The position numbers were made by a program, and so were the translations under genes. A stretch of DNA of 64,000 bases from NCBI RefSeq assembly GCF_003018235.1, contig NZ_CP027437.1, one strand, 5' to 3'. The notes below the pieces were generated by a model. That model did not search any database. It saw nothing but the letters and a program-made list of their open reading frames with translations, and was not told the origin of the DNA. Position 1 is the first letter of the stretch, and each line of letters begins with the position of its first letter. Positions 605-60,293 of the stretch are shown here, piece after piece. Source of the stretch: Escherichia coli (GTDB lineage Bacteria > Pseudomonadota > Gammaproteobacteria > Enterobacterales > Enterobacteriaceae).

Positions 605-791
605 AGTACATCCTTGCAGAATCAGGTAGATGTTTTTCGGCTACTATAACACTACCAAAATAGGCGAACACGTTAGAAATGAGTCAGTTGCTGTGACCGT
701 GGTCATTGCCCGGAAAGGTACAGAAAGCTAAGATGCGATGTTATGGGCCTTAAATATTTGGACAGGCCCACACAGCAATGGATTAATAACA

Positions 792-4304: not shown

Positions 4305-4505
4305 CACGTATACACTTCATCCTTCAGGCTGCCTCTGCGTTGGCTGCGCTCGTTCACCCCGGTCACGTACTTCTGTACGCTCCCGGGGATTCACTCACTT
4401 GCCGCCTTGATGCAACCTGAATGATTTTGTGTATATTACCCTCGGCAATTTCTTCTTCTACGGCCCCAAACAATGCGGGCCGTTGTTTAATTTACGGAAC
4501 TCACA

Positions 4506-7459: not shown

Positions 7460-7594
7460 TCATTATTTTCTGGCGCACCTTTCTGGTGCGCTATTTATTA
7501 TTTTTACGCCAATCATAACTCACACAAATATATTTAAATCGTTCCAGAAACTTCCCATTTTATTCTATTTTTAGCTGGACTTTCCCTGTATTTA

Positions 7595-7610
7595 CTGATG
7601 ATATATCCAG
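7595..7610. promoter_or_regulatory. Candidate LexA box (CTG-N10-CAG, AT-rich centre) upstream of symE
   Basis: Sequence CTGATGATATATCCAG lies ~80 bp upstream of the symE start; symE is known to be SOS-regulated. Confidence 0.5.
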
Positions 7611-7614
7611 GTAT

Positions 7615-7697
7615 TTAGCGCGATGCGGATGTGCGCCAACACACCCGCACCGCTCATCACAATCACTATTTATGGAGAATAGTAATCATGACTGACA
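7615..7697 (-). ncRNA. symR: SymR antisense sRNA overlapping the symE 5' UTR and start codon (approximate boundaries)
   Basis: Position antisense to the symE translation start, matching the known symE/symR arrangement; boundaries not determinable from sequence alone. Confidence 0.4.
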
Positions 7698-8029
7698 CGC
7701 ATTCTATTGCACAACCGTTCGAAGCAGAAGTCTCCCCGGCAAATAACCGTCAATTAACCGTGAGTTATGCGAGTCGCTACCCGGATTACAGCCGTATTCC
7801 CGCCATCACCCTGAAAGGTCAGTGGCTGGAAGCCGCCGGTTTTGCCACTGGCACGGCGATAGATGTCAAAGTGATGGAAGGCTGTATTGTCCTCACCGCC
7901 CAACCCCCCGCCGCCGAAGAGAGCGAACTGATGCAGTCGCTTCGCCAGGTGTGCAAGCTGTCGGCGCGTAAACAAAGGCAGGTGCAGGAGTTTATTGGAG
8001 TGATTGCCGGTAAACAGAAAGTCGCGTAA
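7688..8029 (+). CDS. symE: SymE, SOS-induced toxin-like protein
   Basis: ORF 7631..8029; true start most likely ATG at 7688 ([15 protein letters not shown]...), giving 113 aa; sits between hsdS and mcrB. Confidence 0.85.
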
Positions 8030-8190
8030 CAGCGTTTACTCCCGGTTAACCACCGGGAGCTTTCCACTGACTCAATAGAAACTTTCCCCCTCAGTAAATA
8101 TTTACCTGCCTGATTGTGCAGTAAAAATCTATTGTTTCAGTACGTTGCGAAAGCGATAATAGAGGCTTAGCAATGAGGAAGGCACATCTT

Positions 8191-9570
8191 ATGGAATCAA
8201 TTCAAGCCTGGATTGAAAAATTTATTGAGCAAGCACAGCAACAAAGTTCACAATCCACTAAAGATTATCCAACGTCTTACCGTAACCTGCGAGTAAAAGT
8301 GAGTTTCGGTTATGGCAATTTTACATCTATTCCCTGGTTTGCATTTCTTGGAGAAGGTCAGGAAGTTTCTAACGGTATATATCCCGTTATTCTCTATTAT
8401 AAAGATTTTGATGAGTTGGTTTTGGCTTATGGTATAAGTGACACGAATAAACCACATGCCCAATGGCACTTTTCTTCTGACATACCTAAAACAATCGCAG
8501 AGTATTTCCAGGCAACTTCAGGTGTATATCCTAAAAAATACGGACAGTCCTATTACGCCTGTTCCCAAAAAGTCTCACAGGGTCTTGATTATACCCGGCT
8601 TGCCTCCATGCTGGACAACATAATCAACGACTATAAATTAATATTTAATTCTGGCAAGAGTGTTATTCCACCTATGTCAAAAACTGAATCATACTGTCTG
8701 GAAGATGCGTTAAATGATTTGTTTATCCCTGAAACCACAATAGAGACGATACTCAAACGATTAACCATCAAAAAAAATATTATCCTCCAGGGGCCGCCCG
8801 GCGTTGGAAAAACCTTTGTTGCACGCCGTCTGGCTTACTTGCTGACAGGAGAAAAGGCTCCGCAACGCGTCAATATGGTTCAGTTCCATCAATCTTATAG
8901 CTATGAGGATTTTATACAGGGCTATCGTCCGAATGGCGTCGGCTTCCGACGTAAAGACGGCATATTTTACAATTTTTGTCAGCAAGCTAAAGAGCAGCCA
9001 GAGAAAAAGTATATTTTTATTATAGATGAAATCAATCGTGCCAATCTCAGTAAAGTATTTGGCGAAGTGATGATGTTAATGGAACATGATAAACGAGGTG
9101 AAAACTGGTCTGTTCCCCTAACCTACTCCGAAAACGATGAAGAACGATTCTATGTCCCGGAGAATGTTTATATCATCGGTTTAATGAATACTGCCGATCG
9201 CTCTCTGGCCGTTGTTGACTATGCCCTACGCAGACGATTTTCTTTCATAGATATTGAGCCAGGTTTTGATACACCACAGTTCCGGAATTTTTTACTGAAT
9301 AAAAAAGCAGAACCTTCATTTGTTGAGTCTTTATGCCAAAAAATGAACGAGTTAAACCAGGAAATCAGCAAAGAGGCCACTATCCTTGGGAAAGGATTCC
9401 GCATTGGGCATAGTTACTTCTGCTGTGGGTTGGAAGATGGCACCTCTCCGGATACGCAATGGCTTAATGAAATTGTGATGACGGATATCGCCCCTTTACT
9501 CGAAGAATATTTCTTTGATGACCCCTATAAACAACAGAAATGGACCAACAAATTATTAGGGGACTCATAG
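8191..9570 (+). CDS. mcrB: McrB, GTP-dependent 5-methylcytosine-specific restriction enzyme subunit B (AAA+ GTPase)
   Basis: ORF 8173..9570; start MESIQAWIEKF at 8191 preceded by AGGAAGG; Walker A LQGPPGVGKTF; 459 aa. Confidence 0.93.
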   Translation: MESIQAWIEKFIEQAQQQSSQSTKDYPTSYRNLRVKVSFGYGNFTSIPWFAFLGEGQEVSNGIYPVILYYKDFDELVLAYGISDTNKPHAQWHFSSDIPKTIAEYFQATSGVYPKKYGQSYYACSQKVSQGLDYTRLASMLDNIINDYKLIFNSGKSVIPPMSKTESYCLEDALNDLFIPETTIETILKRLTIKKNIILQGPPGVGKTFVARRLAYLLTGEKAPQRVNMVQFHQSYSYEDFIQGYRPNGVGFRRKDGIFYNFCQQAKEQPEKKYIFIIDEINRANLSKVFGEVMMLMEHDKRGENWSVPLTYSENDEERFYVPENVYIIGLMNTADRSLAVVDYALRRRFSFIDIEPGFDTPQFRNFLLNKKAEPSFVESLCQKMNELNQEISKEATILGKGFRIGHSYFCCGLEDGTSPDTQWLNEIVMTDIAPLLEEYFFDDPYKQQKWTNKLLGDS

Positions 9571-10616
9571 TGGAACAGCCCGTGATACCTGTCCGTAATA
9601 TCTATTACATGCTTACCTATGCATGGGGTTATTTACAGGAAATTAAGCAGGCAAACCTTGAAGCCATACCCGGTAACAATCTTCTTGATATCCTGGGGTA
9701 TGTATTAAATAAAGGGGTTTTACAGCTTTCACGCCGAGGGCTTGAGCTTGATTACAATCCTAATACCGAGATCATTCCTGGCATCAAAGGGCGAATAGAG
9801 TTTGCTAAAACAATACGCGGCTTCCATCTTAATCATGGGAAAACCGTCAGTACTTTTGATATGCTTAATGAAGACACGCTGGCTAACCGAATTATAAAAA
9901 GCACATTAGCCATATTAATTAAGCATGAAAAGTTAAATTCAACTATCAGAGATGAAGCTCGTTCACTTTATAGAAAATTACCGGGCATTAGCACTCTTCA
10001 TTTAACTCCGAAGCATTTCAGCTATCTGAACGGCGGAAAAAATACGCGTTATTATAAATTCGTTATCAGTGTCTGCAAGTTCATCGTCAATAATTCTATT
10101 CCAGGTCAAAACAAAGGACATTATCGTTTCTATGAATTTGAAAGAAATGAAAAAGAGATGTCATTACTTTATCAAAATTTTCTTTTTGAATTTTGCCGTC
10201 GTGAATTACCATCTGTAAATACAACTCGCCCACATTTAAAATGGGATGCATCAAGCATATCGGATCAATCACTTAGCTTGTTACCTCGAATGGAAACTGA
10301 CATCACCATTAACTCATCAGGGAAAATACTTATCGTTGATGCCAAATACTATAAAAGCATTTTTTCACGACGAATGGGTACAGAAAAGTTTCATTCTCAA
10401 AATCTATATCAACTGATGAGTTACTTATGGTCGTTAAAGCCTGAAAATGGCGAAAAAACAGGGGGGTTATTAATATACCCACACGTAGACACCTCAGTGA
10501 AACATCGTTATAAAATTAATGGCTTCGATATTGGCTTGTGTACCGTCAATTTAGGTCAGGAATGGCCGTGTATACATCAAGAATTACTCGACATTTTCGG
10601 TGAATATCTCAAATAA
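9570..10616 (+). CDS. mcrC: McrC, nuclease subunit of the McrBC restriction system
   Basis: ORF 9540..10616; probable GTG start at 9570 (VEQPVIPVRNIYYMLTYAWGYLQ) overlapping the mcrB stop by 1 nt; 348 aa. Confidence 0.9.
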   Translation: MEQPVIPVRNIYYMLTYAWGYLQEIKQANLEAIPGNNLLDILGYVLNKGVLQLSRRGLELDYNPNTEIIPGIKGRIEFAKTIRGFHLNHGKTVSTFDMLNEDTLANRIIKSTLAILIKHEKLNSTIRDEARSLYRKLPGISTLHLTPKHFSYLNGGKNTRYYKFVISVCKFIVNNSIPGQNKGHYRFYEFERNEKEMSLLYQNFLFEFCRRELPSVNTTRPHLKWDASSISDQSLSLLPRMETDITINSSGKILIVDAKYYKSIFSRRMGTEKFHSQNLYQLMSYLWSLKPENGEKTGGLLIYPHVDTSVKHRYKINGFDIGLCTVNLGQEWPCIHQELLDIFGEYLK

Positions 10617-10672: not shown

Positions 10673-13600
10673 TCAGGAGGCGATCACCTCCACCAGCACA
10701 TCCGTTGCCCAACTCTCTTCGCTGTTGGCGACATTCCCTTCCTTGCAGGCCTGAGCCATTTTGACTAACTGGAAAGAAACGTCATCGCGGAAATCAAAGT
10801 AATGCCATTGCGATGCAAAGTTGATGCGCCAGTAGCCCATCCCCTGATCGAAGCGGATCTTCAATACCTGACCATCATCAAAAGTCACCGTCAGTTTACG
10901 ATGGTGAGGGATATCGCGCGGCGAGTCGAACACCGTCAGTTCTACCGGCCTGCCCAGCGCAGCAGCAAACCACTGATCAGCGAAATCCTGAAAATCCGCT
11001 ATGCTCATCCAGTCATGGAAAGGCCGGTTACCGGGGCGATCTTTATCTTTAAATAGCGTATCCAGCGTCACTTCAGCGCCATCGGTCAGCTTTGTTTTTA
11101 GCGGTCTCAAAATTGATCCCAACAACGCCAGCGCAACCGGGTTTTGCAGATAGCGATCGGTATAGTGAACGCCGGTAATTCGCGTGTTATTCATCAGTGA
11201 CTGCGCTTCTTCATGGTCGTTAAACAGCACGTCCCAGAAGCGTTGCCCAAACTGCGACAGTGGTCCATTCAACTGTTTGTGGATCTGAATGTCTTTGACC
11301 CGCTCGACAGCGTTGGCGGCTTTAGCCGGCAGAATAAATTCGTTCAGCTCTACCGTTTTATAGCCGAGACTACGTACCACCAGTTCGTCATTCAGGTGCC
11401 ACTCCGGCCCCGGAATCGTTGCCTGCTGGCTACGAGAGGCCAGCGTCATCACGCGATCGGCAAAGGTGACCTGAGCAACGATCGGTAATTTCAAATCCTG
11501 TTCAACATGGCATAGCCGCACACCCAGCGCAGTAAATTGCGATAGTTCGTGCAACAGGTCCGGGTCATCCACTCCCGCAGGAATAACAAGATCGACCTCG
11601 ACGTTGTCTTTTAGCCGATAGTTCTGAACCGCCGCGCGGAACTGACGTGCGTATAAATCCCACTCATTGGGCGCGCCGGTCATCCACAGGGTGAGCTTTT
11701 CAGCGCCTTCGTTAATCGCCCGGCGAATCGTATCGCCAATGGCGCCAGGGCAGTAGCGGGCATCCGGCAGCGAGAATGTCTCTTCATCCGGTAAACCGAT
11801 GTAATACGTGAAGTCATCGCCAAGCCAGGCCAGCGCCGCTTTGCGATCCAGCAAATCGTGATCGTGGCGAGTCTGGGAATCAAGCAGGCATTCACTACAT
11901 GCAGTCTCACAATGGCGGCAGCCTAACTGTTTCACCATTCCCTGCAATATAGCTTCAATGTGTACCGGTGCGCTGGAGGCAAAACCTGCACCACCGCTGA
12001 TCACATCATAAAGCTGTACGGCTAATACCGATTGCCCATCCTCCAGTCTGACCGGACGTACAGAATAGCCGAGTTCTGCGGCGGAGATACCCAGAACGCC
12101 CGCCAGCGCCTGACGCAGAGCAACCGCCAGAGTCATGGCAACAATCCGCCCCTCCTCTGTGTTATCTGGCAGATACTCGCCGTTTTGCGGTTTGCGCAGA
12201 ATCATTTCAAAGACATCGGTGCGCGCCAGTGCGCCCAGGGTGACGTTCTTCATGAGTGCCGTCGAACCGGGGCAAATCAGACGATGATTCTGGCTGTCGC
12301 GATCCGCTTTACCCGGACGCGGTGGATAGTGAGCTTCCATGCTTTTCGGCGCATCATTTTCATTCAGCATCGACTCAGCACGGCCACAGCTCAGACACAA
12401 TGCATAACCGTGTCCACCTTCCCCCAAACTTTGCTGGAAAACATGCCCATCAGCCCCAGAAGCCATATAACCCATTAGCGGGTTAGGCAACGGTACGGGC
12501 TCTGCTTTAACAAAGACCCACGCGGGGACAACCGGGACGAATTTCATGGTTTCAATATTGTTCGTTACCGGAGCGTGTGCATCGGTGACAAACCCGGCAG
12601 GCTGCAGCACCTGACGGCGATTATCCATGATTATTTTTTCGCCGCAGGCGCTATTGGAGCAAAAGAGCATCCCGGAACTGCTCATCCCCTCTTCATAGCC
12701 AATGGTCCCGCATTTGTGACAGCGCCAGGCGCAATCCAGACGCTGGGCTTCATTGGTATCAGCATTAATGTTGTGCCAGTGCAGTGAGACACCGGCAGAG
12801 CGGAAGACACGGCCATCAAGAATGATCTCTGCTCCCGGTGCATATTCACGAATGGCAACACCGAGGTTACGGGAAGGTAATCCTTTATAACGGGAGACGT
12901 TATCTTCACGGTCCTTTTTATCACGACTTTTTTGCGATTTTTCGCGGATATAATCTTCCATTGTGAAGTTATCAAACGTCACTACATCTGTCGGGAAACC
13001 GTATCCCGGCAAGAAGGTTCTGGCAGCTAGATCGCGCAGCAGATACTCGCCACAGTGCCGTTTCTTCTCCAGCTCTATGCGCTTACGATAAGGCGTTTGC
13101 GGCTGCGACTCACGCTCCTGTGTCACGAGATCGCGATAAACGGAGAGCCACCGCTGCTGCAGGAAGGTGATCGCGTTGATTGTTTTATCCCGCAGATATT
13201 CGGCTCTTGCACCATGCAACGCCGTACCTTTCACCAGCCGTTCCAGCGCCGTGTCGATATCAAGAACAGGGCGTTCCAGCCAGACTTTGAAGCGTTCGCA
13301 TTTTGACTGCCCGTCATCTTCACCGAAAAACCAGAGGCTATCGAGGCTGGTTTTCTCTTTATCGGTTTCGCCAATAACGTTACATAAAAAGTCGGACAGT
13401 AATAATGCATTGACGTGACGTTGCACCAGTCGGGCGGAGTTCATCGCGACCATGGGTGCCGGGATCATGGTTTCAAATGGCCAGAGCGGGTTGGCAAAAA
13501 CCTGCTGGTCGTGTGGGTTACCTTTACATAGGGTGTAAGAGATCGCACGTGATTCTTTACTACGCCCGGCTCGCCCGGCGCGCTGTAAATAGTTGGCCGG

Positions 13601-16600
13601 ATGTGGCGGTACGTTGTTCATTACCACCGCAGTAATGCCCCCGATATCAACCCCCATTTCCATGGTGGTGGAACAGTTGAGAACATTTAGTTGCCCATTC
13701 TTGAACATCTTTTCATAGCTTTGCAGACGTTCTGACGACTGCTGGGCAGAGTGCTCGGCAGTGCGATAGTAGAAACCGCCTTCCACGACACGATCGTTGA
13801 TGTCTGTCCAGACGTTTTCCGACCGCAATTGTGCGATCAGCGGATCATTGCTGACCCAGTCGCGTGCTTTTGCCAGACCCTCTGCGTAGTCTTCCTGTGA
13901 ACGATCCAGCTTCCAGATTTCCGGCATGGTGACTTTCTGCGCGACAAAAGTGTCATATTGCGCCTGGGTAAGATGCTCGAACGAAATATGGGTAGGCAGA
14001 TAAGGGGTTAAGCCTTTAAAAGCCGTATCCAGGATTTTATTGGTTACCGGGCAAATCCAGGCATCCGTGATTAATGAAAAAGTCATATGCTCTTTCGGTA
14101 AATAAAAACGGTTGCCATCGGGTTTCAGTACTGCAAGCGGTCCGGTAAGTTGGGCCCATGCTTCTTTCAGCCATGTATTGATAATATCAATAGTCGCCGT
14201 ATTGACGGTTTTGAATCCAGCCCCCAGCATCAGTAACTTCGCTAAACGATGGGATACGTTGCCATTACGAATTTGAGGCCAGCGTCTGTTCTGATTATCT
14301 TCAGGATCTTTTGATTCCGGGTTACGGACGAATTTTGATGAAAAACGGCTACCGATCCAGTTTTTCAGCTCATCATCCAGCTGTGTGAAGTTGCTCTCAC
14401 GAACGTAATGATCCAGCGTAACTTTGAGAAAATCGCGCCAGTCATCCAGCGTTAATCCTTTTTCCTGCCAGTGCAGAGGGATCTTATGTATTTTCTCCAG
14501 CCCCAGGTAACCAACCTGAACCAGCCCTTGTGTTTCCAGGCTGTTAGTCCGTTTAGGGCGACGCATGAATTCCCGGAATAACAACATTTCCGAAAGCTTT
14601 AGAGGCCCGCCGTTTTCATTAAACACTTCAGGCTTAAGATAATGGTTATATTGCAGAACCGGGCCACGGATATCGGCTCTCTCTTTAAGCTCGTTAACCA
14701 TTTCTGTCCAGGTTCGGGATACCAGAGTAATTGCAGCTTTTCCACCGATTGCAGACTGGTAAGCCTGTTCAAGCTGCTCGGCCTGCGCTTCTGATAATTT
14801 CGCTTGATCCGGCAATCCCCAGCTTCGATATTCTTCTGCCTGCTCACGGGCTTGCTTTACCCTGGTCGCTAATTTTTCCAGATCGGCATTAGCGTTCGGC
14901 GCCGTGGGCGTTTGCGTTCGTTGATGCCAGCTCAGAATTTCGACTACGCTTCCGCGTAAGCGACTACGTTCTGCTTCTTGCTGCATACGCACCGCCATCC
15001 GGGCTGTCCCTTGTCGACTATCCGTAAAGGTAATGAGTCGACGTCCTCGCCCTGGCAACGAATCTGGTCCGACGCCCTCTTTGCCTTCATCACTGGCAAA
15101 GTCCTGACAATACTCAAGAACGGTGGGAACGATATTAGTAACGTAAAATGGCCCACCTAATAGTGCACGCCGGAAGGGCTGTTTCCCGCTCATGCCTCTG
15201 AAGCCACAGCCGCTGGCGCTACAAACCTGTTCAATATCATTAATAATCAGCGGAATGCTGTCATTATTAATAACGCCAATACGGCGCGTCTGACGGTCGA
15301 GGCGTTGTAGGGTATAGCCTGTCTCGCTGGTCTCTCCTGCGGCAATAATCAACGGAGGCTGGAAACCGTTCTCTTTTTCGACTTTTTCCTCTGTAGTGTC
15401 ATGTTCAACAGGTACTTCATCCTGCAAGGAGAACTCATCGCCACCTTTATTTTCCCATTGGACAAGTTTGCCCTTTTTGTCCTGCGCCAGAAGATGAGGC
15501 TCATTACAATCATTACAGAACGCCACTTCGTAGACAGGGCTTCCACAGTCGCAATTTTGTCGCTGGTTCACATACACATAGCCAAAGGGCCAGCCTTTTT
15601 CGAGCGGTGTACCGTGCTTTAATCTGCAATCTTTATCAACACAAGCCCATATTCCCTGGGTATTACGCTGGAAGATATGCGCCCTGACTTTAAGAAATGC
15701 GGGATCCTTTGCATTAGGTTGAGTCCCTGAACAGACATCGATCCAACGCAGTACTTCCTGCTGGCTGTAATGCTGTTTTGTCAGCGCATTTAACCGCTGC
15801 GTCATCTCATCCAGTTTCATTGGATTAGGTTGGCTAACCAACATTTCACGTATGTAACGCGCTTCGGGGGAGTGCGTAAGCGCATAAAAGCGCTCAGGAC
15901 TTATCCCTTTAATTTTATTATCATTTTTATCTTTTAGATCCAGATCAGGTATTTGCTCTATTTCGTCTAACGGAACAGAAACGTTTTTGGATGGTTCCAG
16001 TTCAGGAATCACCCGACTTCCGTCCAGAACATCGATGCGCTCCTGCGGGATACCGGATAATTCAGAGAGAAATTTTTTCAGCTGCTTTTCAGCGTCGCTG
16101 CCGGCAATGGTCGCAGAGGTCGCTACAAAGCGCACGTCATCTGGTGTCACGCCAAACGCTGTCATCACACGACGCAGCTGGAGCGCCAGTTCAGCGGCCT
16201 GCGACCCGACATAGGTATGCGCTTCATCCAGTACAATCCAGCGTAGTGATTTTTGTGCTTTAGATTGCTGGATAATCGGGGCGTCGACCTGGCGAACCAT
16301 CATATATTCCAGCATCGTGCCGTTGGTCACCAGAATCGGCGCAGGTTCTTCACGCATTTTTTCGCGCGAGAGCACCTCATTCGGCCTTTTTGCCTGTTCA
16401 CTTTTTACCGAAGCGTGTAGGTTTTCGGTGTTGCCGTTGTAAAGGCAGTAGCGAATCCCAGTACCAAAACCACGCGTCCAGGCATCCAGACGCTCGCGCT
16501 GTGAATTAATCAAGGCGTTCAATGGATAGAGAAAAAGGGCTCGGACACCAACCAACGGATTGTTGCCATTTTCATGCAGTTCCCGGTAAAGATCTTCCAG

Positions 16601-17017
16601 CACCGGAACCATAAAACATTCCGTTTTACCTGAACCCGTACCACTGGTTACCACCACTGAATGTTTCTTTTCCAGCAAAGCTTTCCAACTGGCTAACTGG
16701 TGTGTAAAAGGCTTCCAGTCAGCACCAAATCGGTACCGGCCATTACTCTGATTATCCAGTGAATCAACCACTGCTTTGCTCAACAATGCGTTGCCTTCCG
16801 TCAGGCTGCGCATCGTGTGATTTGACTCCTTCCATCCAAACATTTGCTGGAATACCGGAGAAGCAAGGAATGAGCCCGGTTTCCCACAATCAGCCCCCAT
16901 TTGTTGCGCGAGATGTTCACGCAGCTGCGGGTTGGTAACGCCCATGATACTGAGCGTTGCTTCAGTTGAACGAGACAACGATTGTTCAATAAGTGACGAA
17001 AAATAGCGTGTAGTCAT
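10673..17017 (-). CDS. Very large DEAD/DEAH-box helicase with C-terminal cysteine-cluster (DUF1998/MrfA-like Zn-ribbon) region; DruE-like (Druantia) defence protein
   Basis: Intact 2114-aa ORF; Walker [17 protein letters not shown] box [11 protein letters not shown] motif, helicase-C motif QRAGRAGR, cysteine clusters (CHKCG...CSNSACG; CLSCG; [11 protein letters not shown]); good RBS AAGGAATAAGG before the ATG; 87 bp downstream of the partner gene. Confidence 0.75.
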
Positions 17018-17104
17018 CCTTATTCCTTTTTATTTTTTAGCAACATAACGCAACAGGCTGCACTGAAAGATGGTCTTAAACCAGCGGGAATCGAAGTCCC
17101 TGAC

Positions 17105-18823
17105 TTACCTCAGGAAAAATACGGCACCGGGTTTACGGTCAAATACAGCTTCAAAAGAAGTATTTCCGCTTGCCACAGCTGCAGCGAAGACGGGTAACCA
17201 GGCCACGGAATAGCGGTGATTTGCGTCAGGATTAATACCAATCACTGGATTTTTTTGTGACATCATCCATTTATACAGACGCTTGCAGCCATATTCAGGC
17301 CAGCGAGCTTCACTGTGCTCACGTAAAAGCTCCTGATACCACCCGTGGACACAAGATTCAGGAATAGACGGAGGGAGATATCCGTTACTTAACCATTTCT
17401 CAATTTCATCGGCATATGTCGGGAACACGAGCCCCAGCCGTTGAAACATATTAGTAACCAGTAATTTCTGGGTTTCCTCCGGTGCACCTTTTTGGCTCAG
17501 GAACAATTTGAAACGCTCAGATGCAGCTTTGATCTCAAAGATGGGGAAAAACTCCCATAGAATAGGGAACTCATTCTCAATACGACTCAGGTACTCTGCT
17601 GACATTTCAAATTTGAAGAGCGACATCGCCAATGCCTGCGGATGCTGCACTAGTGCACGCCATACTTCAAAGGTTGCCAGCGGTAAATAACCAAATTGAT
17701 CGTACAGGCTACGCATAAATTGCCAGCCGGAATGGGCAGGATCGTTAGCCATCTGTCCGAGAACCAGTGTGATGGTATTAACTTCTGCCTGTGGATTAAA
17801 AAGCTGGGTCGCTTTCTGCAATGAGCGGATGTTGCTTTCTTCTACCGGTAACGAAGATTCGCCACGAATGAAGCAGGGGCGAAAAGCCATCTCCTCACCC
17901 GGTTTAGGAACAACCAACCATGGCCCATTTTTGTTAACGATTGAGCTCAACTCATATTCACCGACAGGCACTCCCTCGCTCATTCTTGATGCTAAGGGGA
18001 TGGATTTCCTCTCGGGTTCACTTAACAGCATGATAACGGGGGAAGGAATCTGCCCAGCACGATGGTTCACTGACTGGCTGAGTAATAGTTCTTTTTCATA
18101 ATCATAGCGCAGGCTGTATTTATAGCGACGAATTTGCCAGGCCATGACCACACCTGCCCCCGTAATACGCATCTCAACAACCTGATCAATACCTGCCTCA
18201 AGTGAAATCAGGTTCTCAATATGTTCGCGCAGACTATAGAGATTCAATTCAACAGGACGATCGCTCAACGCCGTATAACACCATTCATGCCATGCCTGTA
18301 ATCCACTAACGGAGCGCAAATACAACTGCAATGTATATTTTGTCGGCTCACCATTTCTGGAGAACAGAAACGCTCTGGAACCCAGCAGATCATGCAGCGT
18401 AATGTTTTTATCCAGAGGACGTCCGTTTACATCAAGAGCGAGACAGCCTTTAGCGGGAAAAGGTAACTCAATGTCGATGGGGTCAGCCGCCAAATTAGGC
18501 AGAACTTGTAATGTAATAAATGCCGGAGGTACCCCTTCCGCTTTAAGTTGTATCTCTGTTCGCCCCTCAGTACGCTTACGTGTAGCCTCCAATGTTTTAT
18601 CTTTAAGTTTTGCTACACAAGGATGCTGTGTGGTGATTAAGATAGTGCCTTCATTTGCGTGCATTCCACCTTTTATCTCAATACTGAAATCAGCAGGCAA
18701 GATACCGATTTTGCGACGCAAGAGCGTTTCATTGTTACTATTACGGATAGAAAGATATTGAGCCCCCAGCATCTCTTGTATATGACATTGCTCAATTGAA
18801 ATTCCGCTCAGGTAACGCGTTAC
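17105..18823 (-). pseudogene. C-terminal fragment of the DruH-like partner gene, separated from its 5' part by IS100
   Basis: The 582-aa ORF 17105..18853 begins with a GTG inside the IS inverted repeat; native sequence starts at 18823; frame is continuous with fragment 20778..21943 once the IS and one GTTAC copy are removed. Confidence 0.75.
18819..18823. repeat. Target-site duplication (GTTAC), left copy
   Basis: Identical 5-bp GTTAC immediately flanks both ends of the 1954-bp element. Confidence 0.75.
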
Positions 18824-20777
<1,954 letters not shown>

Positions 20778-20782
20778 GTTAC
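20778..20782. repeat. Target-site duplication (GTTAC), right copy
   Basis: See left copy. Confidence 0.75.
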
Positions 20783-21943
20783 ATCAATGCTTTGAATATC
20801 CGGTAGTGTAGAAATGACTTTTGGTACACCAATAAATGTTTCATCTGGATGACAAACCCAGCTTGCACGCTTTCCATTTAGAGCAAACCTTCCGATGCTG
20901 ATTTGTTCTCTTCCGGTGCGAATCCGATAAGTTTCATTTGCTGTAACTGTAACGTCCTGACATCCCTTCACAGGTAGTGCTTTTAGTCCTAATACGTTTA
21001 CTGCGCTCGATTGGCCATCAAAACCAGCAACATTGCTATTATCCCGAGGGAGTACAATCAGAACATCGCTGCTTCGCACACTGCAAGAAGCCTGTCCCTG
21101 TAACAGCCATTGATCTGCATCAACGATGAAGGTTAACGGCACCTCACCAATGGCAATTTCACTGTCATCAAGTTTAATGCTCCCAACAATCATCCCTCCA
21201 GCACGAGCCACTAATGACAAACCTGCCGATGGATTTTGCCTGACAAATCTCACTTCGCTTTTACGTAATCGAACTGTTGCCTGTCTGTTTTCCAGGGAAG
21301 CATAGGCTGGCCCAAGGCCAGAGACTTCCTCACCATCTTCACAAATGGCAAGTTCAAAGCGCGTAGTTGACGGCTCGCTTGTTACAGGAAAGGAAACTTC
21401 GTCCGGAAGAGATACTATCACCCTAAGCTCATCTGGATGCTTTTCTGACCAATAGAATTGGCAACGCGTACTCTTATTTTTTTGTAGTCGAGGCTTAGCC
21501 TCTACAGAGGCTGCGCATAGCAGTCCATTCAAAAAATGCGTTCCTGTTTCATCATCTAACGGTATTGGAAACTCGCTTCGCCAGGTAGGGTGAACCTTCT
21601 CAAGCTGTTGTACTGGTTCTTTGTGATTTATTAGGTTGTGAGTAAGTACTAAGGAATTGAGGTTATCAGCCATATGACTGATAAGTTCTACAGAGGTATC
21701 TTCGCTAAAAACAGTTGGCAGCGCTGATTTTTCTATGACAGCTCTTGCCAGCGAAAGGGCAGAAAAACCTGACTGCTTTGCTTGCTCATATTGTCCAAGG
21801 ATCCTGGAGAAAACAGCCAGAAAGCGACTGTCTGATTCTTTGAGTAGCCGGAAAGGTAAACCACCTTCACTGAATAATGTTCCGAGAAAATTGCGTCGTT
21901 CAGATTCATAAAATCGAATTGGGCGCAGCCAGTAATCTTCCAT
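20778..21943 (-). pseudogene. N-terminal fragment of the DruH-like partner gene, interrupted by IS100
   Basis: The 393-aa ORF 20762..21943 ends in a stop supplied by the IS end; the reconstructed junction reads ...TLPDIQSIDV|TRYLSGISIEQ... in frame. Confidence 0.75.
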
Positions 21944-24772: not shown

Positions 24773-25729
24773 TTAGTACTCGATCCATGGATCACGCTTG
24801 CTTTCAGGCAAGGGCTGATCTAATGCCTGCATTTGCTCTGCCGAAAGTCCGGTATATCGTTGTATCCATTCAGGATCGGCCCCATTCTGCAACAATAATC
24901 GGAGGAGGCTCCGTTCCCCTTCTACTTTCCCTTCTTTCCTGCCCCTCTCCCTTCCCAACAGCCATCCATCATTATGAATTCGCTCTGCAATTGTCATTAT
25001 TCGCTCCCTGTGGTGTGGCATTCGCCTGGTAAGTTCGCTGATAAACGCCTTAAAACGCGCTTCATCGCCAGTCAGTAAAATGTAATTTAACAGCGCAGTT
25101 ATCTGGCTGTCATTAGCACACTCTGTAACCAGTAATACTACCAGTTGGTCGATAAGCCCCATCAGATCGCGCTGGCGAATATGCTTTTGGATCAACTCCA
25201 ACAGGGCGACTCTGCGATGCTGCACAATCTCGTCGTCTGGCACGACAGTGACATCCACCAGCGGGAACGCTGCGCTATAAAGTTTCCGTGCGGTAGTCGG
25301 GTCGGCAAATTCGTCCAGCCAGCACAGGGACCAGGGGTAAGGACTACGGCTACCGTGATAAAACAGCATCGGGATGACCAGCGGTAGCGGCCGGCGTTTA
25401 TCATGCTCGATATGGCGCTGCATCACCGCCATAGAATAGCGCATCAGGCGAAAGGCCATATGAATATCCTCGCGGCTCTGATGTTCAATCACCACATAAA
25501 TATAGCCATCGCCTTCGCGGGTCTTTACCGACCACAGAATATCGGAATGTAGCGCCCGCAATTTTTCATCGACAAAGCTGGCGGATTCCAGTTTTAAGCT
25601 GTCGAGATCGCACAGTTCACGTAAATCTTTAGGTAAGTGGATCTCCATAAAATCCCGCGCGGTGTCAGGGTGCATGAGAAAAGATTTAAATAATGCGTCA
25701 TGCGGCGTGCTGGTCGTGAAGTTTGTCAT
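24773..25729 (-). CDS. rpnD: Rpn-family recombination-promoting nuclease (PD-(D/E)XK, transposase_31-like), apparently intact
   Basis: 318-aa [31 protein letters not shown]..., typical Rpn/YhgA-like N-terminus; position matches yjiP/yjiQ. Confidence 0.8.
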
Positions 25730-53217: not shown

Positions 53218-54120
53218 TTATTGATAAACAAAAGTCACGCCAATAATCGATTGCACATTCCCTGCAGTCACCTGCCCTCCGGTACGTGCGTAATTTGCCG
53301 TTAATCCCAGACTTACCGCCGAAGTCCCTACTGCTCCTAACGATACCGTGTTATTCGCTGGAATAATCGTACCGTTGCGCGTCAACTGTACGCCGACGCC
53401 CTGCGCTGGTGAAAACGACGCGGTATTGGTGAAAATCGAGTTGCCCGCATCTGCGGTTGTGCCGGAGAGGTAATACCCCAGGTTTTGGCTTTTCGCACAA
53501 TAAACGGTAAGAGGAATTGGCACTGAACCAGGGTAGTCCGGCAGAGTAACGGTGACATCACGAGCAGAAACATCACAGCCGCCAGTAGGCACCACCACAT
53601 CATTATTGGCGTAAATATTCCACACAAACTGGAAATCATCGCTGTTATAGTTGTTGGTCTGTCGCAAAATTAGCACGGCAATTAATGAGCCAGCTTTAAT
53701 CGCCACCCCGCCCGCACTGCTCACAGGCGTCAAATAAAGCGCCACCGGCCACGGCTTATCCGTTCTCGAATTATAAACAACCCGCGGCGTTTCGCTGGTG
53801 GTAGGAAATGGATAGCTACTGCCACTATATTTTACGGTCCCGGAAAAATTAGATAACACGCCGCCATAAGCCGAACCTCGTTGCAGTGTGACATAGTCTG
53901 TAATGGTTTCCGGGTAATCGTTATGGCAAAAGATTTGCGTCGAAAGATCCACGACCAGGTTTTGCCCCACATTCACGGCGGGCGCAAGGTTTACATAAAC
54001 ATTGGCGCTGCCACCGCCAATAGGGATAGCGGTGCCATTGGCGGTTTTACAGGCGAATGACCAGGCATTTACCGACCAGCCCATCAGCAGTACAGCAAAC
54101 AGGGTAATAACTCGTTTCAT
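53218..54120 (-). CDS. fimH: Type 1 fimbrial adhesin FimH (mannose-binding)
   Basis: ORF 53218..54129; start MKRVITLFAVLLMGWSVNAWSFACKTANG... at 54120; 300 aa. Confidence 0.95.
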   Translation of the reverse strand: MKRVITLFAVLLMGWSVNAWSFACKTANGTAIPIGGGSANVYVNLAPAVNVGQNLVVDLSTQIFCHNDYPETITDYVTLQRGSAYGGVLSNFSGTVKYSGSSYPFPTTSETPRVVYNSRTDKPWPVALYLTPVSSAGGVAIKAGSLIAVLILRQTNNYNSDDFQFVWNIYANNDVVVPTGGCDVSARDVTVTLPDYPGSVPIPLTVYCAKSQNLGYYLSGTTADAGNSIFTNTASFSPAQGVGVQLTRNGTIIPANNTVSLGAVGTSAVSLGLTANYARTGGQVTAGNVQSIIGVTFVYQ

Positions 54121-54139
54121 TACAATCATCTCTTCGGCT

Positions 54140-54643
54140 TCAGCTGTAGGTATAGGTGATGCTAATCACTGCCTGAATGGTTCCCTGAGTGGCTCCGCCA
54201 TTTACCGTCAATGCTCTGACCTGTAACGGGAAGTGCGCTGATTGTGAGGAATCATCCACCTGAACTGTTTTGGTTGCGCCAGTATTCAATGTGTTGCCAC
54301 TGTCATCCTGTAGCTCTAACTGGATGTTTTGCGCGGTCCCCTGGTTTTTATAATATCCGGTACTGTCGGCTGCCCCGCTGAAGCTGGCGGTGACCCTCGA
54401 CGTTCCCACCGGACAATTAGTCAACTCAAGCGCAACATCATGCCAGGCCGATGCCGCCCCGGCAGACATCAGACTGAAAGAATAAAGATCGCCGAGATCT
54501 ACCGTGGCATTGGTGGTGGAAACCGTGCACGGTTTGGCGACGACCTTACCGTTCACCGTGATGGTGACATCGGCTGCCTGTATCGTCGCACTTGCGAGCG
54601 CCAACATTGCCGCCAATAAATACCCACGTTTGCGCCATTTCAT
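54140..54643 (-). CDS. fimG: Type 1 fimbrial minor subunit FimG
   Basis: ORF 54140..54649; start at MKWRKRGYLLAAMLALASA; 167 aa. Confidence 0.93.
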   Translation of the reverse strand: MKWRKRGYLLAAMLALASATIQAADVTITVNGKVVAKPCTVSTTNATVDLGDLYSFSLMSAGAASAWHDVALELTNCPVGTSRVTASFSGAADSTGYYKNQGTAQNIQLELQDDSGNTLNTGATKTVQVDDSSQSAHFPLQVRALTVNGGATQGTIQAVISITYTYS

Positions 54644-54655
54644 GAGCATCTCCAG

Positions 54656-55186
54656 TTACTGATATTCAAGAGTGAAGGTAGCCGTGGCATTGATATGCCC
54701 CGCAGTGACAGGCACCTGTGTCGCCATTAACCGGGCGTAAAAATTCAGCGTATTTGGTTTACCCAGCGTCAGGGTCGTCCACGAAATCGCGGACGATGGA
54801 GCATTAAGGGGTATTTGATTTTGCTGCTCATTCAGAAGCTGTATTCCCAGTCCCGCAGCCGCTGACACCGTATTTTCAAGTGCAAGCAGGTTGGCATTGT
54901 GGCTATCTGCAACGCCAGTAAACCCAACCTTTACGGCAGAAACGGCGTTACCACAGGGTGACAGCAAAATACGAAATGGAACGACAGGAGTCGTCGCGCC
55001 AATGTTGTTAAATTGCTTCGCCGCGTTTTCCATCAGATCAACAGTAAAATTGGTTGATTCAGCGGCCACACTACAGCCGTTATCTCTGACATAGCCGCGG
55101 ATAGTAATCGTGCTATCCGCAGCCAAAGCGCGACTTACCGCCAGCCACAAAAAAGCGCACAGAAGATAAAAAGGTTTGTTTCTCAT
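54656..55186 (-). CDS. fimF: Type 1 fimbrial minor subunit FimF
   Basis: ORF 54656..55189; start at [15 protein letters not shown]; 176 aa. Confidence 0.93.
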
Positions 55187-55195
55187 CACGCCCCC

Positions 55196-57832
55196 TTAAC
55201 GACATTCAGCTGATAGCTGGGTTAATAACTGCTGCTGACTCTCTGGTGGCAGTTGATAATTGGCGACACAGTGAGCATTTTCCTCTTCTCCCCATTTCAC
55301 CTGAACTTTTCCCGCTAAAGGCATTCCGCTGAGGTAAACCTGACCATTATCCGCAACAATGCCGCTACTCTGGCTACTCTCTGATGTCACCATCGCCCCA
55401 AACGGCAGCGGCTTATTATTGTGGGTTAGCGTCATGAGCAGTTTTATCCCAACGCGCGCTTTAAACTCTGCTCGCACTATCGCCCCACGAGTGGGAACAA
55501 CGTTAGCGACCGCGTTATCTAAATCGACGTTATCAGCCAGGGTATTGGTATCCAGCGCTACTCTGTTTTCCCGATATTCAGTGGCATAAGGCAGCACGGC
55601 ATAACCGCGCCAGTCGGTACGCACCCCCGTCTGGTTTTCGACTTTTGCATCTTTTGCGCCAGGCGCTTTAACAAGCACCACCGTATCGTTTAACGGCTGC
55701 CCCAGCGTTACGCCATTGGCATGAGCCAGTACCCCACCGCTGACTCCATAATAGAGCTGCTTAATATCATCGCTATGGCTGTAACCGATGTTGGCATTGC
55801 CGTAACCACCGCGATAATTCAGCGTGGCGTAGCCTGTGCTTCCGCTATTACCATCGCCTCCCCCGGCATAGCCGGTTTGCACGCTATAGCTGAGGTTGTT
55901 GTCTTCCAGCAACGTACCGTATACACCGGCCAGATTGGTCATCCGACCGTTGAGATCGTGTGACATGCTGTAGCTGGCACTGGCATGTCGCCACTGAGAT
56001 TTACTGTCAGAACGCAGCCAGTGGCTGAAAGGAATATTGACGTTAAGCGCTAACATCTGATCCCGTCCTTTTTGCCAGGCGTTTTTCGTCAGGCTATAGC
56101 TGAGCGTCCAGTTGATATCTTCGAATGCAGTATTTAAACCAGCCTGGAATTGCTCATCGACATTACTCGTTCCCCAATAAGTTTGATGGCTACCACTCAA
56201 ATACAGTGTTGATGTGCGCCCGAGTTGCTGAGTAACGGTGAGTTGTAATTTCCCGCGTTTGTTATAAGCGAGATTGTAATAGTCGGTGAATTTCGGCTTA
56301 ACCTGAATAACACCATCCTGTGTTTCGATGTTGTAGCCATTCATTCGACTGTATGTTGTATCAGCGAAATTAAAATACCCACTGGTCGAATAACGGTAAC
56401 CCACTAACTGAATATTCGTGCCTGATTCATTGAGCGATTTGTTATAGAGAAAACGCACCGATTGTCCGTCATGCTGACTGTCATCGGGAAGTGTGGAATT
56501 AGCCTGCGTCATATCCACAGACAGAGCGCCCAGTGCCCCCATGTTTTTCCCGATACCGAAATTAAAAGCACGATAACGATCCGCCAGTTGCGTTCCACCA
56601 TATATTGTCCAGCCAGCCGGAAGGCCGTGGAGTAATGTACTCTGGAAAAAGCGAGGTTTTTCCTGCTGCGCATTTCCACTACGGTATTCTCCTGCCGTAA
56701 TGGAATAACGAGTATGTCCTTCCCGTTGCAAAAGCGGGACTGACGAATAGGGTACGGTAAAGATCTGCGTGCTGCCGTCAGCCTCTTTAATCGTTACCTG
56801 CAAGTCACCACTATTACCTGCGGCATAGATATCGTTGATGGTAAAAGGCCCCGGTGGCACCGTACTATTATAAATGTCATACCCATTTTGTTTAATAGTG
56901 ACCTGTGCAGTACCACGAGCAATACCGTGGATCACCGGGGCAAATCCTCTTTGGCTATCGGGTAACATATTGTCATCTGAGGCCAATTGTGCGCCGCGAA
57001 AGTTAATACCATCGAAAATATCGCCCTGGGTATAACCATCACCCAGCGTCAGCCGGGAACGTAACGGAATTATGTCTCGCTCAAGCCAGGTATTGATATG
57101 CTGCCATTTATTTTTGCTACCTGATGAACTGTCGCTACTGTTATAACTCCAGGTGGTATTGTCGCGTAAACGCCACGCACCAATATTTAGCCCACTCTGT
57201 AGGTTTAAATATGCATAATGGCTGTTACTACCAATCCGATTCTGTACACTATTTCCGCTGAAATTATAATTGAGCAAGCCGGCATTAATACCGGGATCCC
57301 ACAACTCAGGAGGAATATATCCACGCGCGCGATTACTCATAAATGCCTGAGGGATCGTCAGGTTGAGTCGCTGCTGACCAACATCTAAATGCGCAGTAGC
57401 GTCATGGATCATTGAGGTTAATGGCACGCAGGCATCATCCGCCAGCAGATTCATACCGGAGACAGAAGCCGTATTCAGCCCCATACTGGCAAGTTGCGCG
57501 CGTGTCAGGCAGGGAACAATCCCTTGTTCACTGTCGCCCGTGTTAAATGTGACATCACGCGTTGCCATATAAGCATTATTCAAATAGATATCGACGCGAT
57601 ACGTCCCTGGCGGTAATTCTTGCCCATTTTCAAAACGCGATAAATCGGCCACAGCCTGGGGATCATCCGCTAAAAAGCGCGGATTAAAATAGAGTTCGGC
57701 AGATGACAAAGGTGCCTGTGCGGCAAAAGCACAGGCGACAAAGAGCCGGACAAAAAGACCAGCCAAACGATGCTTACGAACATGCAAGCATTGTGTGTTT
57801 CGCTGGTAAAGTCTTAAATTCAGATATGACAT
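55196..57832 (-). CDS. fimD: Fimbrial outer-membrane usher FimD
   Basis: 878 aa usher. Confidence 0.95.
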   Translation of the reverse strand: MSYLNLRLYQRNTQCLHVRKHRLAGLFVRLFVACAFAAQAPLSSAELYFNPRFLADDPQAVADLSRFENGQELPPGTYRVDIYLNNAYMATRDVTFNTGDSEQGIVPCLTRAQLASMGLNTASVSGMNLLADDACVPLTSMIHDATAHLDVGQQRLNLTIPQAFMSNRARGYIPPELWDPGINAGLLNYNFSGNSVQNRIGSNSHYAYLNLQSGLNIGAWRLRDNTTWSYNSSDSSSGSKNKWQHINTWLERDIIPLRSRLTLGDGYTQGDIFDGINFRGAQLASDDNMLPDSQRGFAPVIHGIARGTAQVTIKQNGYDIYNSTVPPGPFTINDIYAAGNSGDLQVTIKEADGSTQIFTVPYSSVPLLQREGHTRYSITAGEYRSGNAQQEKPRFFQSTLLHGLPAGWTIYGGTQLADRYRAFNFGIGKNMGALGALSVDMTQANSTLPDDSQHDGQSVRFLYNKSLNESGTNIQLVGYRYSTSGYFNFADTTYSRMNGYNIETQDGVIQVKPKFTDYYNLAYNKRGKLQLTVTQQLGRTSTLYLSGSHQTYWGTSNVDEQFQAGLNTAFEDINWTLSYSLTKNAWQKGRDQMLALNVNIPFSHWLRSDSKSQWRHASASYSMSHDLNGRMTNLAGVYGTLLEDNNLSYSVQTGYAGGGDGNSGSTGYATLNYRGGYGNANIGYSHSDDIKQLYYGVSGGVLAHANGVTLGQPLNDTVVLVKAPGAKDAKVENQTGVRTDWRGYAVLPYATEYRENRVALDTNTLADNVDLDNAVANVVPTRGAIVRAEFKARVGIKLLMTLTHNNKPLPFGAMVTSESSQSSGIVADNGQVYLSGMPLAGKVQVKWGEEENAHCVANYQLPPESQQQLLTQLSAECR

Positions 57833-57898
57833 TATTCCTCCGGTTTAAAATCACCCGGCAGTCAATTCTTTTTATTCAGGCGAAAAATTCCCCCTGCG

Positions 57899-58624
57899 TT
57901 ATTCCATTACGCCTGTCATTTTGGGGGTAAGTGCGCCATAATCATTTATTGTTCGGTAAGTAATATTGCTTCCTGCATCAGAAGGCAATTTAACCGTGCT
58001 TTCGCCCATTGGAGGCACCAATGCATTTTCAAGAACCCGGGTTCCGGCATTCAACTCTGTTACCGTCAGGTAATAGGGTGTCGGGTTAATCAGCGTCAGA
58101 GAATTCGCGCTACGACGAAATCTTAATTTTTCTGCGGCCTGATCGGGTGGCAACGCTAATTTAGCCGGGCGATAGTACAGTTTAATGCGGCTGATAATTG
58201 CGAGCTGTAGCGTATTCTCAGTCAATTTTGATTTATCCATTGACGGAATCGCTTTAACGTTCATCCAGAATAAACTTTCCCGATCCTGTGGCAATTGGTT
58301 ATTTGTTGCATCAAGAATACGCAAGGTATTCTCTTTTTTTCCCTTCATCGCAAACAGAGGAGGCGTCACGATAAAACGACCATCCTTTACACCATCGGCA
58401 TTTTCCACCCATGATTGAATTAAATAGGTGCTATTTTCATCATTATTTGTCACGGCAAGTTGCACTTGTTTTTGCCCTGCCGGATAAATTACGCGAGTCG
58501 CACCTAAGGCCACTCCCGCTTCAGCGCGTCCGGCAACCATCATTGCCATGAACATCAGGATACCTGCCAGCAAGCAGAATGTTATTTCCTGCGATTTCCT
58601 TACATTGACGTTTTTATTACTCAC
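57899..58624 (-). CDS. fimC: Periplasmic fimbrial chaperone FimC
   Basis: 241 aa PapD-like chaperone. Confidence 0.95.
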   Translation of the reverse strand: MSNKNVNVRKSQEITFCLLAGILMFMAMMVAGRAEAGVALGATRVIYPAGQKQVQLAVTNNDENSTYLIQSWVENADGVKDGRFIVTPPLFAMKGKKENTLRILDATNNQLPQDRESLFWMNVKAIPSMDKSKLTENTLQLAIISRIKLYYRPAKLALPPDQAAEKLRFRRSANSLTLINPTPYYLTVTELNAGTRVLENALVPPMGESTVKLPSDAGSNITYRTINDYGALTPKMTGVME

Positions 58625-58660
58625 TGTCCTGTTCCTGTTATCACATTATCTGCTGAACAA

Positions 58661-59200
58661 TTACTGATAGGTTAAAGAGAACCAGGCCTGGGCATTGGCG
58701 ATGCCGCCAGTAACCCGACGCCCGGTAGCACGATATTTGGCGATGAAATGTAGCGAAGTAGAGCCTGAGTAAAGCCGTTTCCAGTTTGCTGGAGGACGAT
58801 TAATCGGTACGAGGTTTCCTTCATCATCAAATAACGCTACGCCAATATTTGTGGCTATCCCTGGCCCCTCTCCCACGGAAAGCACATCCGGATTTTTACC
58901 ATCCGCGACACCGTGAAACGCCACACCCACACGTTCACTCACCACCGTGCTACATTCCCGTAAATGAATAACAAAAGGCACCGGTGCGCTATCTTCCCCT
59001 ACCGCATGAAACCGGTTACTGCTGATTTGCCCCATATTGACCGTCATTTGTTTATCACCAGCTTCAACTCGGCAAGTTTCCGCAATAATGACGCCCTGAA
59101 ATTGCATATTTCCGCCGGGCAGCGTGGTATTCCATTTATTTCCGGCCAGAGCAAACATTGGCAGCAACGACGCTAATAGAAATAATCTCTTCCTTTTCAT
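58661..59200 (-). CDS. fimI: Fimbrin-like protein FimI
   Basis: ORF 58661..59332; probable start [20 protein letters not shown] at 59200 (179 aa); a longer upstream start is possible. Confidence 0.85.
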
Positions 59201-59264
59201 CGTTATTTTTATCGCACAAGGGTGGGCATCCCTGCCCGTAATGACGTCCCTGAACCTGGGTAGG

Positions 59265-59813
59265 TTATTGATACTGAACCTTGAAGGTCGCATCCGCATT
59301 AGCTGCGCCAGGGGTTGCGGCACCGGTTGCAAAATAACGCGCCTGGAACGGAATGGTGTTGGTTCCGTTATTCAGGGTTGTTTCTGAACTAAATGTCGCA
59401 CCGTCCAGCGCCAGCGCAGCACCCGTTCTGTCCAGGATCTGCACACCAACGTTTGTTGCGCTACCCGCAGCTGAACTCTGCAGAGCCAGTACATCAGTAT
59501 GCGTAGCATCAATTGCCGTACCTAAGAAGGCAACAGCGGCTTTTGTGGCAACAGTGGTATCGCAATCATTCAGCTGAATGTTAAAACCAACGGCAGAGCT
59601 GGTTGCTCCAGCCTGCTTCAGGCTAGCGGTACGAACCTGCCCTAACTGAACGGTTTGATCAGCAGAGCCTGCATCAACTGCGCAAGCGGCGTTAACAACT
59701 TCCCCTTTAAAGTGAACGGTCCCACCATTTACCGTCGTAGTATCAGCCAGAGCCGCTGCGGAACTGAGGGACAGAGCCGACAGAACAACGATTGCCAGAG
59801 TTTTAATTTTCAT
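59265..59813 (-). CDS. fimA: Type 1 fimbrial major subunit FimA
   Basis: ORF 59265..59870; start [23 protein letters not shown] at 59813; 182 aa. Confidence 0.95.
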
Positions 59814-59932
59814 GCTGCTTTCCTTTAAAAAAACTATTTCTAAATCGACATGGGCAGTCGTTCTGTACACTTTGTTTTGTCAACGAGTTTGACTGCCAAC
59901 ACTGCACAGTTTTCCCCCAAAAGATGAAACAT

Positions 59933-60246
59933 TTGGGGCCATTTTGACTCATAGAGGAAAGCATCGCGCACAAACTTTTTCAGTTTATTTGTTGGCTTAA
60001 TATTCTATTGTTATCTTTATTTATAGATTTTTATATTGCATGAGGTGGTTTTTGGAGAGAAGAATGAGGAAGATGCGTCGAGCCACAGAAACGTTAGCTT
60101 TACATTTGGCGGAGGTGATGTGAAATTAATTTACAAGAGAAATAATTTACATATCAAACAGTTAGATGCTTTTTATCGTTTTTTAATATTTTTATGCTTG
60201 AGAAAAAATACGTAACTTATTTATGATATGGACAGTTTGGCCCCAA
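59933..60246. promoter_or_regulatory. fimS: fimS invertible element (fim switch), 314 bp bounded by 9-bp inverted repeats TTGGGGCCA / TGGCCCCAA; apparently phase-OFF
   Basis: Inverted repeats at 59933..59941 and 60238..60246, located between fimE and fimA; the internal sigma70-like promoter points toward fimE, away from fimA. Confidence 0.85.
60198..60227 (+). promoter_or_regulatory. fimA promoter inside fimS (-35 TTGAGA, 18-bp spacer, -10 TATGAT), here oriented away from fimA
   Basis: Near-consensus sigma70 hexamers read on the + strand about 10 bp inside the fimE-proximal inverted repeat. Confidence 0.6.
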
Positions 60247-60293
60247 TTGTCTTGTATTTATTTGTTTTTTAACTTTATTATCAATAAGTTAAA

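Follow-up and report, generated by a model that had tools for sequence, protein, structure and literature searches.

The segment at 59933..60246 raises two questions: which phase of the type 1 fimbrial switch has this assembly recorded, and what, if anything, does the recorded orientation tell us about the bacteria that were sequenced? The answer developed below is that the region is almost certainly an OFF-oriented copy of fimS, the canonical switch for the phase of type 1 fimbriae in E. coli, and at the level of sequence every defining fimS feature that was tested was found in it. The result is right, was known before and is of an ordinary kind, and it belongs to textbook biology. Throughout, the window means the whole 64-kb stretch of DNA that was analysed.

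The invertible element and the genes around it

In the whole 64-kb window the 9-mer TTGGGGCCA occurs exactly twice and in inverted arrangement, at 59933-59941 on the plus strand (IRR, the fimA-proximal repeat) and at 60238-60246 on the minus strand (IRL, the fimE-proximal repeat), and because these two copies place the ends of the element at 59933 and 60246, fimS is 314 bp long. The preliminary description of this DNA had claimed just such a 314-bp element with 9-bp inverted repeats, and the sole two copies in the window bear it out. Chance alone would be expected to supply 0.59 copies, and at least two were present in 12 of 100 shuffles, none of them as an inverted pair at the fimS spacing. 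The repeats extend imperfectly to 22 nt with 77% complementarity (59920-59941 and 60238-60259), which is where the recombinase half-sites would be expected to lie. The delimitation of this phase-OFF element draws on the inverted 9-mers, on collinearity with MG1655 and on the in silico assays described below.

By open reading frames and NCBIfam matches, fimS has fimE on one side and fimA on the other and lies upstream of fimAICDFGH, in a non-coding gap of 480 bp that separates fimE from fimA; the whole cluster, fimB-fimE-fimS-fimAICDFGH, runs along the minus strand in the final 11 kb of the window. Both invertases are matched at full length and with scores well in excess of the cut-off: fimB, encoding the bidirectional tyrosine invertase of 200 aa (61368..61970, minus strand; NF007370, 458.4 bits), and fimE, encoding the ON-to-OFF tyrosine invertase of 198 aa (60294..60890, minus strand; NF007371, 451.7 bits). 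Across the switch lie fimA, for the major fimbrial subunit of 182 aa (59265..59813, minus strand; NF011741, 184 bits), and then fimI, fimC, fimD, fimF, fimG and fimH, which the list of open reading frames gives as uninterrupted and of the expected lengths (53218..59200, minus strand), with FimI matching NF052361 at 333.7 bits and fimD and its neighbours being named in annotated genome matches. A 35-nt stretch at 59220..59254 (minus strand) is 100% identical to the FimR2 sRNA of MG1655, where it is annotated just downstream of fimA.

Both FimB and FimE belong to the tyrosine recombinases and work inside the 9-bp repeats, FimB inverting the segment both ways and FimE strongly favouring inversion from ON to OFF and overriding FimB, and inversion is further shaped by IHF, Lrp, H-NS and Fis (PMC2647292, PMC9993118). 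In the present locus the two enzymes would cut and rejoin the DNA within the 9-bp repeats, so inverting the 314-bp segment together with the sole promoter of fimAICDFGH that it carries.

The remainder of the window holds several features that are worth recording in their own right. An "immigration control" block at 738..10616 comprises the type I restriction-modification genes hsdR (738..4304), hsdM (4506..6095) and hsdS (6092..7459), the SymR antitoxin RNA (7617..7693, minus strand; Rfam RF01809, 95.8 bits) and mcrB/mcrC (8173..10616). Next to it, on the minus strand at 10673..21943, is a Druantia type III anti-phage pair, in which DruE3 (druE) is a full-length protein of 2114 aa (10673..17017, minus strand; PADLOC PDLC00037, 2697 bits) and DruH3 (druH) is present as a C-terminal open reading frame at 17105..18853 (minus strand; profile positions 500-1074) and an N-terminal one at 20762..21943 (minus strand; profile positions 113-501). 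Between these two lies an IS21-family element on the plus strand (18910..20711; IstA 18910..19932, IstB 19929..20711), and since druH is split by it, Druantia III looks insertionally inactivated. Further along are an Rpn-family recombination-promoting nuclease or putative transposase, RpnA-like and of 318 aa (24773..25729, minus strand), which passes TIGR01784 and falls below the equivalog cut-offs, and a pentapeptide-repeat protein of 704 aa with a long repeat region (31367..33481, plus strand), whose weak HetL/Qnr/PipB2-type matches all lie below the family cut-offs. Finally, an inverse autotransporter adhesin of 1,746 aa is encoded at 36047..41287 (plus strand); its N-terminal 838 aa match an IatC-type model with a score of 1123 bits, below the model cut-off of 2400, and it resembles the intimin/invasin family too. 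To our knowledge this adhesin is absent at the corresponding position in K-12.

Promoter direction and the assembled phase

The phase of a fim switch is read from its promoter, which sits inside fimS (PMC2647292, PMC2636892): in the ON state it is directed toward the structural genes, and in the OFF state it is inverted and their transcription is abolished (PMC2636892, PMC2647292). A consensus scan gave as its top sigma-70 match within 59700..60500 the combination TTGAGA-18-TATGAT on the plus strand (60198..60227; 10/12 consensus positions), with the -35 hexamer at 60198-60203, an 18-nt spacer and the -10 hexamer at 60222-60227, and this match ends 10 bp from IRL and is directed at fimE, away from fimA. 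From their position we take these hexamers to be probably those of PfimA, which Olsen and Klemm are said to have mapped in 1994; a literature search pairing the TTGAGA/TATGAT hexamers with the fimA promoter found nothing relevant. Transcription from PfimA would start at about A60234, just inside IRL. As a promoter pointing away from fimA is the definition of the OFF phase, the window is therefore OFF (PMC2636892, PMC2647292).

Two weaker promoter-like matches, each of 9/12, were also returned by the consensus scan, one on the plus strand at 60008..60037 and one on the minus strand at 60157..60128 that is directed at fimA; the total of three matches compares with 2.0 +/- 1.5 expected in shuffles, and the weak ones are therefore at the level of chance in AT-rich DNA. 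The best promoter had earlier been described at exactly the coordinates that the scan returned, adjoining the fimE-proximal repeat and facing fimE, and the accompanying claim that no comparable promoter reads toward fimA is a fair one, its only competitor being at chance level, with the amendment that one 9/12 match in that direction does exist.

It might still be argued that the assembled orientation is the ON phase and that the fimA promoter is something other than the TTGAGA/TATGAT match, and for this there is nothing to cite beyond the weak match reading from inside fimS toward fimA, set against a strong match that faces away from it. The comparison with the published ON phase proposed in the preliminary description was therefore run in silico, by way of three published restriction assays of switch orientation, and it upheld the OFF assignment. 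The assays use a unique BstUI site (CGCG, 59965..59968), 24 bp inside the fimA-proximal repeat, and a unique SnaBI site (TACGTA, 60209..60214), inside the PfimA spacer on the fimE side. With OL4/OL20 and BstUI, the sequence as assembled yields 188+539 bp (published OFF 539+187) and the same sequence with the fimS interior flipped yields 434+293 bp (published ON 433+293; PMC9993118). With the 601-bp pair and SnaBI, the assembled sequence yields 440+161, exactly the published OFF pattern, and the flipped one 196+405 against a published ON pattern of 403+198 (PMC11724981, PMC4374849), while an older 602-bp primer pair taken from PMC2978726 gives, again with SnaBI, 442+160 as assembled and 198+404 when flipped. 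The 2-bp ON mismatch in the 601-bp SnaBI assay looks like rounding in the literature or a mixing of primers and numbers, and it leaves the distinction between ~160/440 and ~200/400, hence the OFF assignment, unaffected. Digests that are OFF-sized as assembled and ON-sized when flipped rule out the ON phase for the window, and the orientation is moreover shared by ~95% of assemblies, matching the known dominance of OFF (PMC9993118, PMC10925322), so that we give the ON reading virtually no chance of being right.

With the window in OFF, PfimA would sit beside the fimE-proximal repeat and fire into the 3' end of fimE, leaving fimA untranscribed together with the genes that follow it. The opposite transcript may be affected as well, for it is in the OFF orientation alone that the fimS Rho-dependent terminator acts on fimE mRNA (PMC2647292, PMC12360218). 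By base composition, a candidate Rho-utilisation region lies at ~60014..60113 on the minus strand, that of the fimE-sense transcript, as a C-rich and G-poor tract in which 60-nt windows contain 27-35% C and 3-15% G with C/G up to 6.6 as assembled; the fimE-sense RNA with fimS flipped is G-rich, with C/G of 0.19-0.47. A C-rich tract that is on the fimE-sense strand in OFF only is consistent with the published Rho-dependent terminator, whose position here is suggested by C/G composition only. In OFF, the fimE-sense transcript would enter this tract and be terminated by Rho, leaving a shortened and destabilised fimE mRNA. Hinde et al. reportedly mapped the fimS Rho terminator in 2005. A scan of 59700..60500 found no intrinsic terminator, which is consistent with a Rho-dependent mechanism.

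Inside fimS there is also a purine-rich open reading frame of 27 codons, MRWFLERRMRKMRRATETLALHLAEVM (60040..60123, plus strand), with a GGAG placed six bases ahead of an internal ATG, and it lies just downstream of the weak promoter-like match at 60008..60037. Its composition is purine-rich because it is the complement of the C-rich fimE-sense tract, and small open reading frames inside fimS were set aside as coding candidates, their composition being explained by the opposite strand. We consider it highly unlikely that antisense transcription from PfimA into the fimE 3' end, or the 27-codon open reading frame, regulates anything in an orientation-specific way, be it in this strain or in all E. 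coli, and a literature search found no statement on PfimA antisense transcription into fimE in OFF cells.

What the orientation says about the culture

Wild-type cultures are strongly biased toward OFF (PMC9993118, PMC2647292), and as FimE is intact here, OFF is the expected majority state. Under FimE dominance over FimB, most cells in an ordinary culture would be OFF, and a consensus assembly would then record OFF. The source culture was probably a mixed population, and the earlier statement that the assembled sequence represents cells not transcribing fimAICDFGH would hold for the bulk of that population and not necessarily for every cell, an assembly giving the majority orientation.

How far assemblies follow populations could be gauged from a census in which junction probes of 129 nt, each made of the repeat with 60 nt of flank on one side and 60 nt of interior on the other, were compared with 5,426 complete E. 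coli genomes. At the fimA-side junction 4,464 of these genomes carry the orientation of the window and 247 the flipped one, and at the fimE-side junction the counts are 4,463 and 248, so that ~94.7% of the locus-bearing assemblies are OFF and ~5.3% are ON (247-248 of ~4,711). fimS is therefore seen in both orientations across complete E. coli genomes, and real genomes, a DH5alpha assembly being one of them, reproduce at 100% identity the flipped junctions that had been made in silico; the ON assemblies include the DH5alpha one and several isolates from mouse, dog and cattle. The window itself is not among the census genomes, its best match over 20 kb being 99.4%. In stool metagenomes ~7.7% of fimS copies are ON, and the 95:5 split of the assemblies mirrors these measured population fractions (PMC10925322). 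Since assembly orientation tracks the population bias, it is not to be read as a property of the strain.

These numbers also bear on the possibility that the recorded orientation is an artefact of assembly, an arbitrary pick from a roughly balanced mixture that says little about the culture. fimS is indeed known to be heterogeneous within cultures, and with ~5% of complete assemblies in ON, either state does get recorded; a split of 95:5 is, on the other hand, not what arbitrary choice would be expected to produce (cf. PMC10925322), and an intact FimE imposes a strong OFF bias on wild-type cultures (PMC9993118, PMC2647292). In addition, sequencing reads far exceed the 9-bp repeats in length and so resolve the junctions directly. 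An arbitrary pick is accordingly very unlikely, and the OFF orientation is better taken as that of most cells in the culture. Judged from sequence, that culture would have been mostly non-fimbriate, like most E. coli cultures, while keeping a type 1 system that appears complete and switchable. The importance of this result beyond correct annotation is slight, and the census is a possibly useful by-product.

The switch among known systems

The K-12 fimS, with its FimB/FimE phase switch, is said to have been described by Abraham et al. in 1985 and by Klemm in 1986. Compared with MG1655, the locus is collinear over 3.47 kb, with an identity of 97.5% and without inversion, which is to say that it has the MG1655 orientation, and within fimS there are 6 SNPs and 0 indels, and no SNP touches a repeat, a -10/-35 hexamer or an IHF core. 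FimB (200/200 aa) and FimE (198/198 aa) are identical to their MG1655 counterparts. Two matches to the IHF consensus WATCAANNNNTTR mark predicted IHF sites, both on the plus strand, one inside fimS (IHF-2, TATCAAACAGTTA, 60152..60164) and one outside it beside IRL (IHF-1, TATCAATAAGTTA, 60279..60291), in agreement with the published layout of IHF-2 within fimS and IHF-1 adjacent to IRL (PMC9993118). As the repeats, FimB, FimE and the IHF sites are all as published, the switch should be functional and should still invert.

An OFF assembly could nonetheless come from a switch that is genetically locked by mutation of a repeat, of the switch itself or of a recombinase. EHEC O157:H7 is locked OFF by a deletion in fimS. 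In Shigella, the locking is attributed to a fimB nonsense mutation and IS insertions, all of the 129 Shigella genomes that one study looked at being OFF and fimB being inactivated in S. flexneri (PMC4374849). The window resembles these systems in that its assembled genome is OFF, and differs from them in keeping intact its switch and repeats, its two recombinases and all of its structural genes. Neither 9-bp repeat has a mismatch, the element keeps its exact length of 314 bp without any indel against K-12, its substitutions fall outside the sites named above, an identical 314-bp fimS allele is present in other complete genomes, and FimB and FimE have the sequences of the functional K-12 proteins; the genes for IHF, Lrp and Fis, which act as host factors, lie outside the window, and the comparison is to be read with that scope. 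A mutationally locked-OFF switch is rejected on this evidence as extremely unlikely, and we retain the reading of an ordinary switch in its OFF phase.

The closest relative is thus the K-12 switch, as reviewed elsewhere (PMC2647292, PMC9993118), with which the present element agrees in being 314 bp long, in lying between fimE and fimA, in the identical sequence of its 9-bp repeats, in its promoter hexamers, in where its IHF consensus sites fall, in its BstUI and SnaBI sites and in its invertases. It is unlike K-12 in its 6 fimS substitutions, in flanks that are 97.5% identical and in a FimA that is identical at 171/182 residues, a divergence that is the usual antigenic variation, and none of this amounts to a visible functional difference. 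More distantly, the Klebsiella fimS/FimB-E switch, Salmonella hin and the flgB and cwpV switches of C. difficile (PMC5386303, PMC2784873) likewise invert a short promoter or terminator segment site-specifically between inverted repeats, and the C. difficile flgB switch also shows OFF-specific Rho-dependent termination (PMC12360218). These other invertible-promoter switches differ in their recombinases (the serine invertase Hin; RecV), in their repeats and in the operons that they target, and what the window contains is no analogue but the fim switch of E. coli itself.
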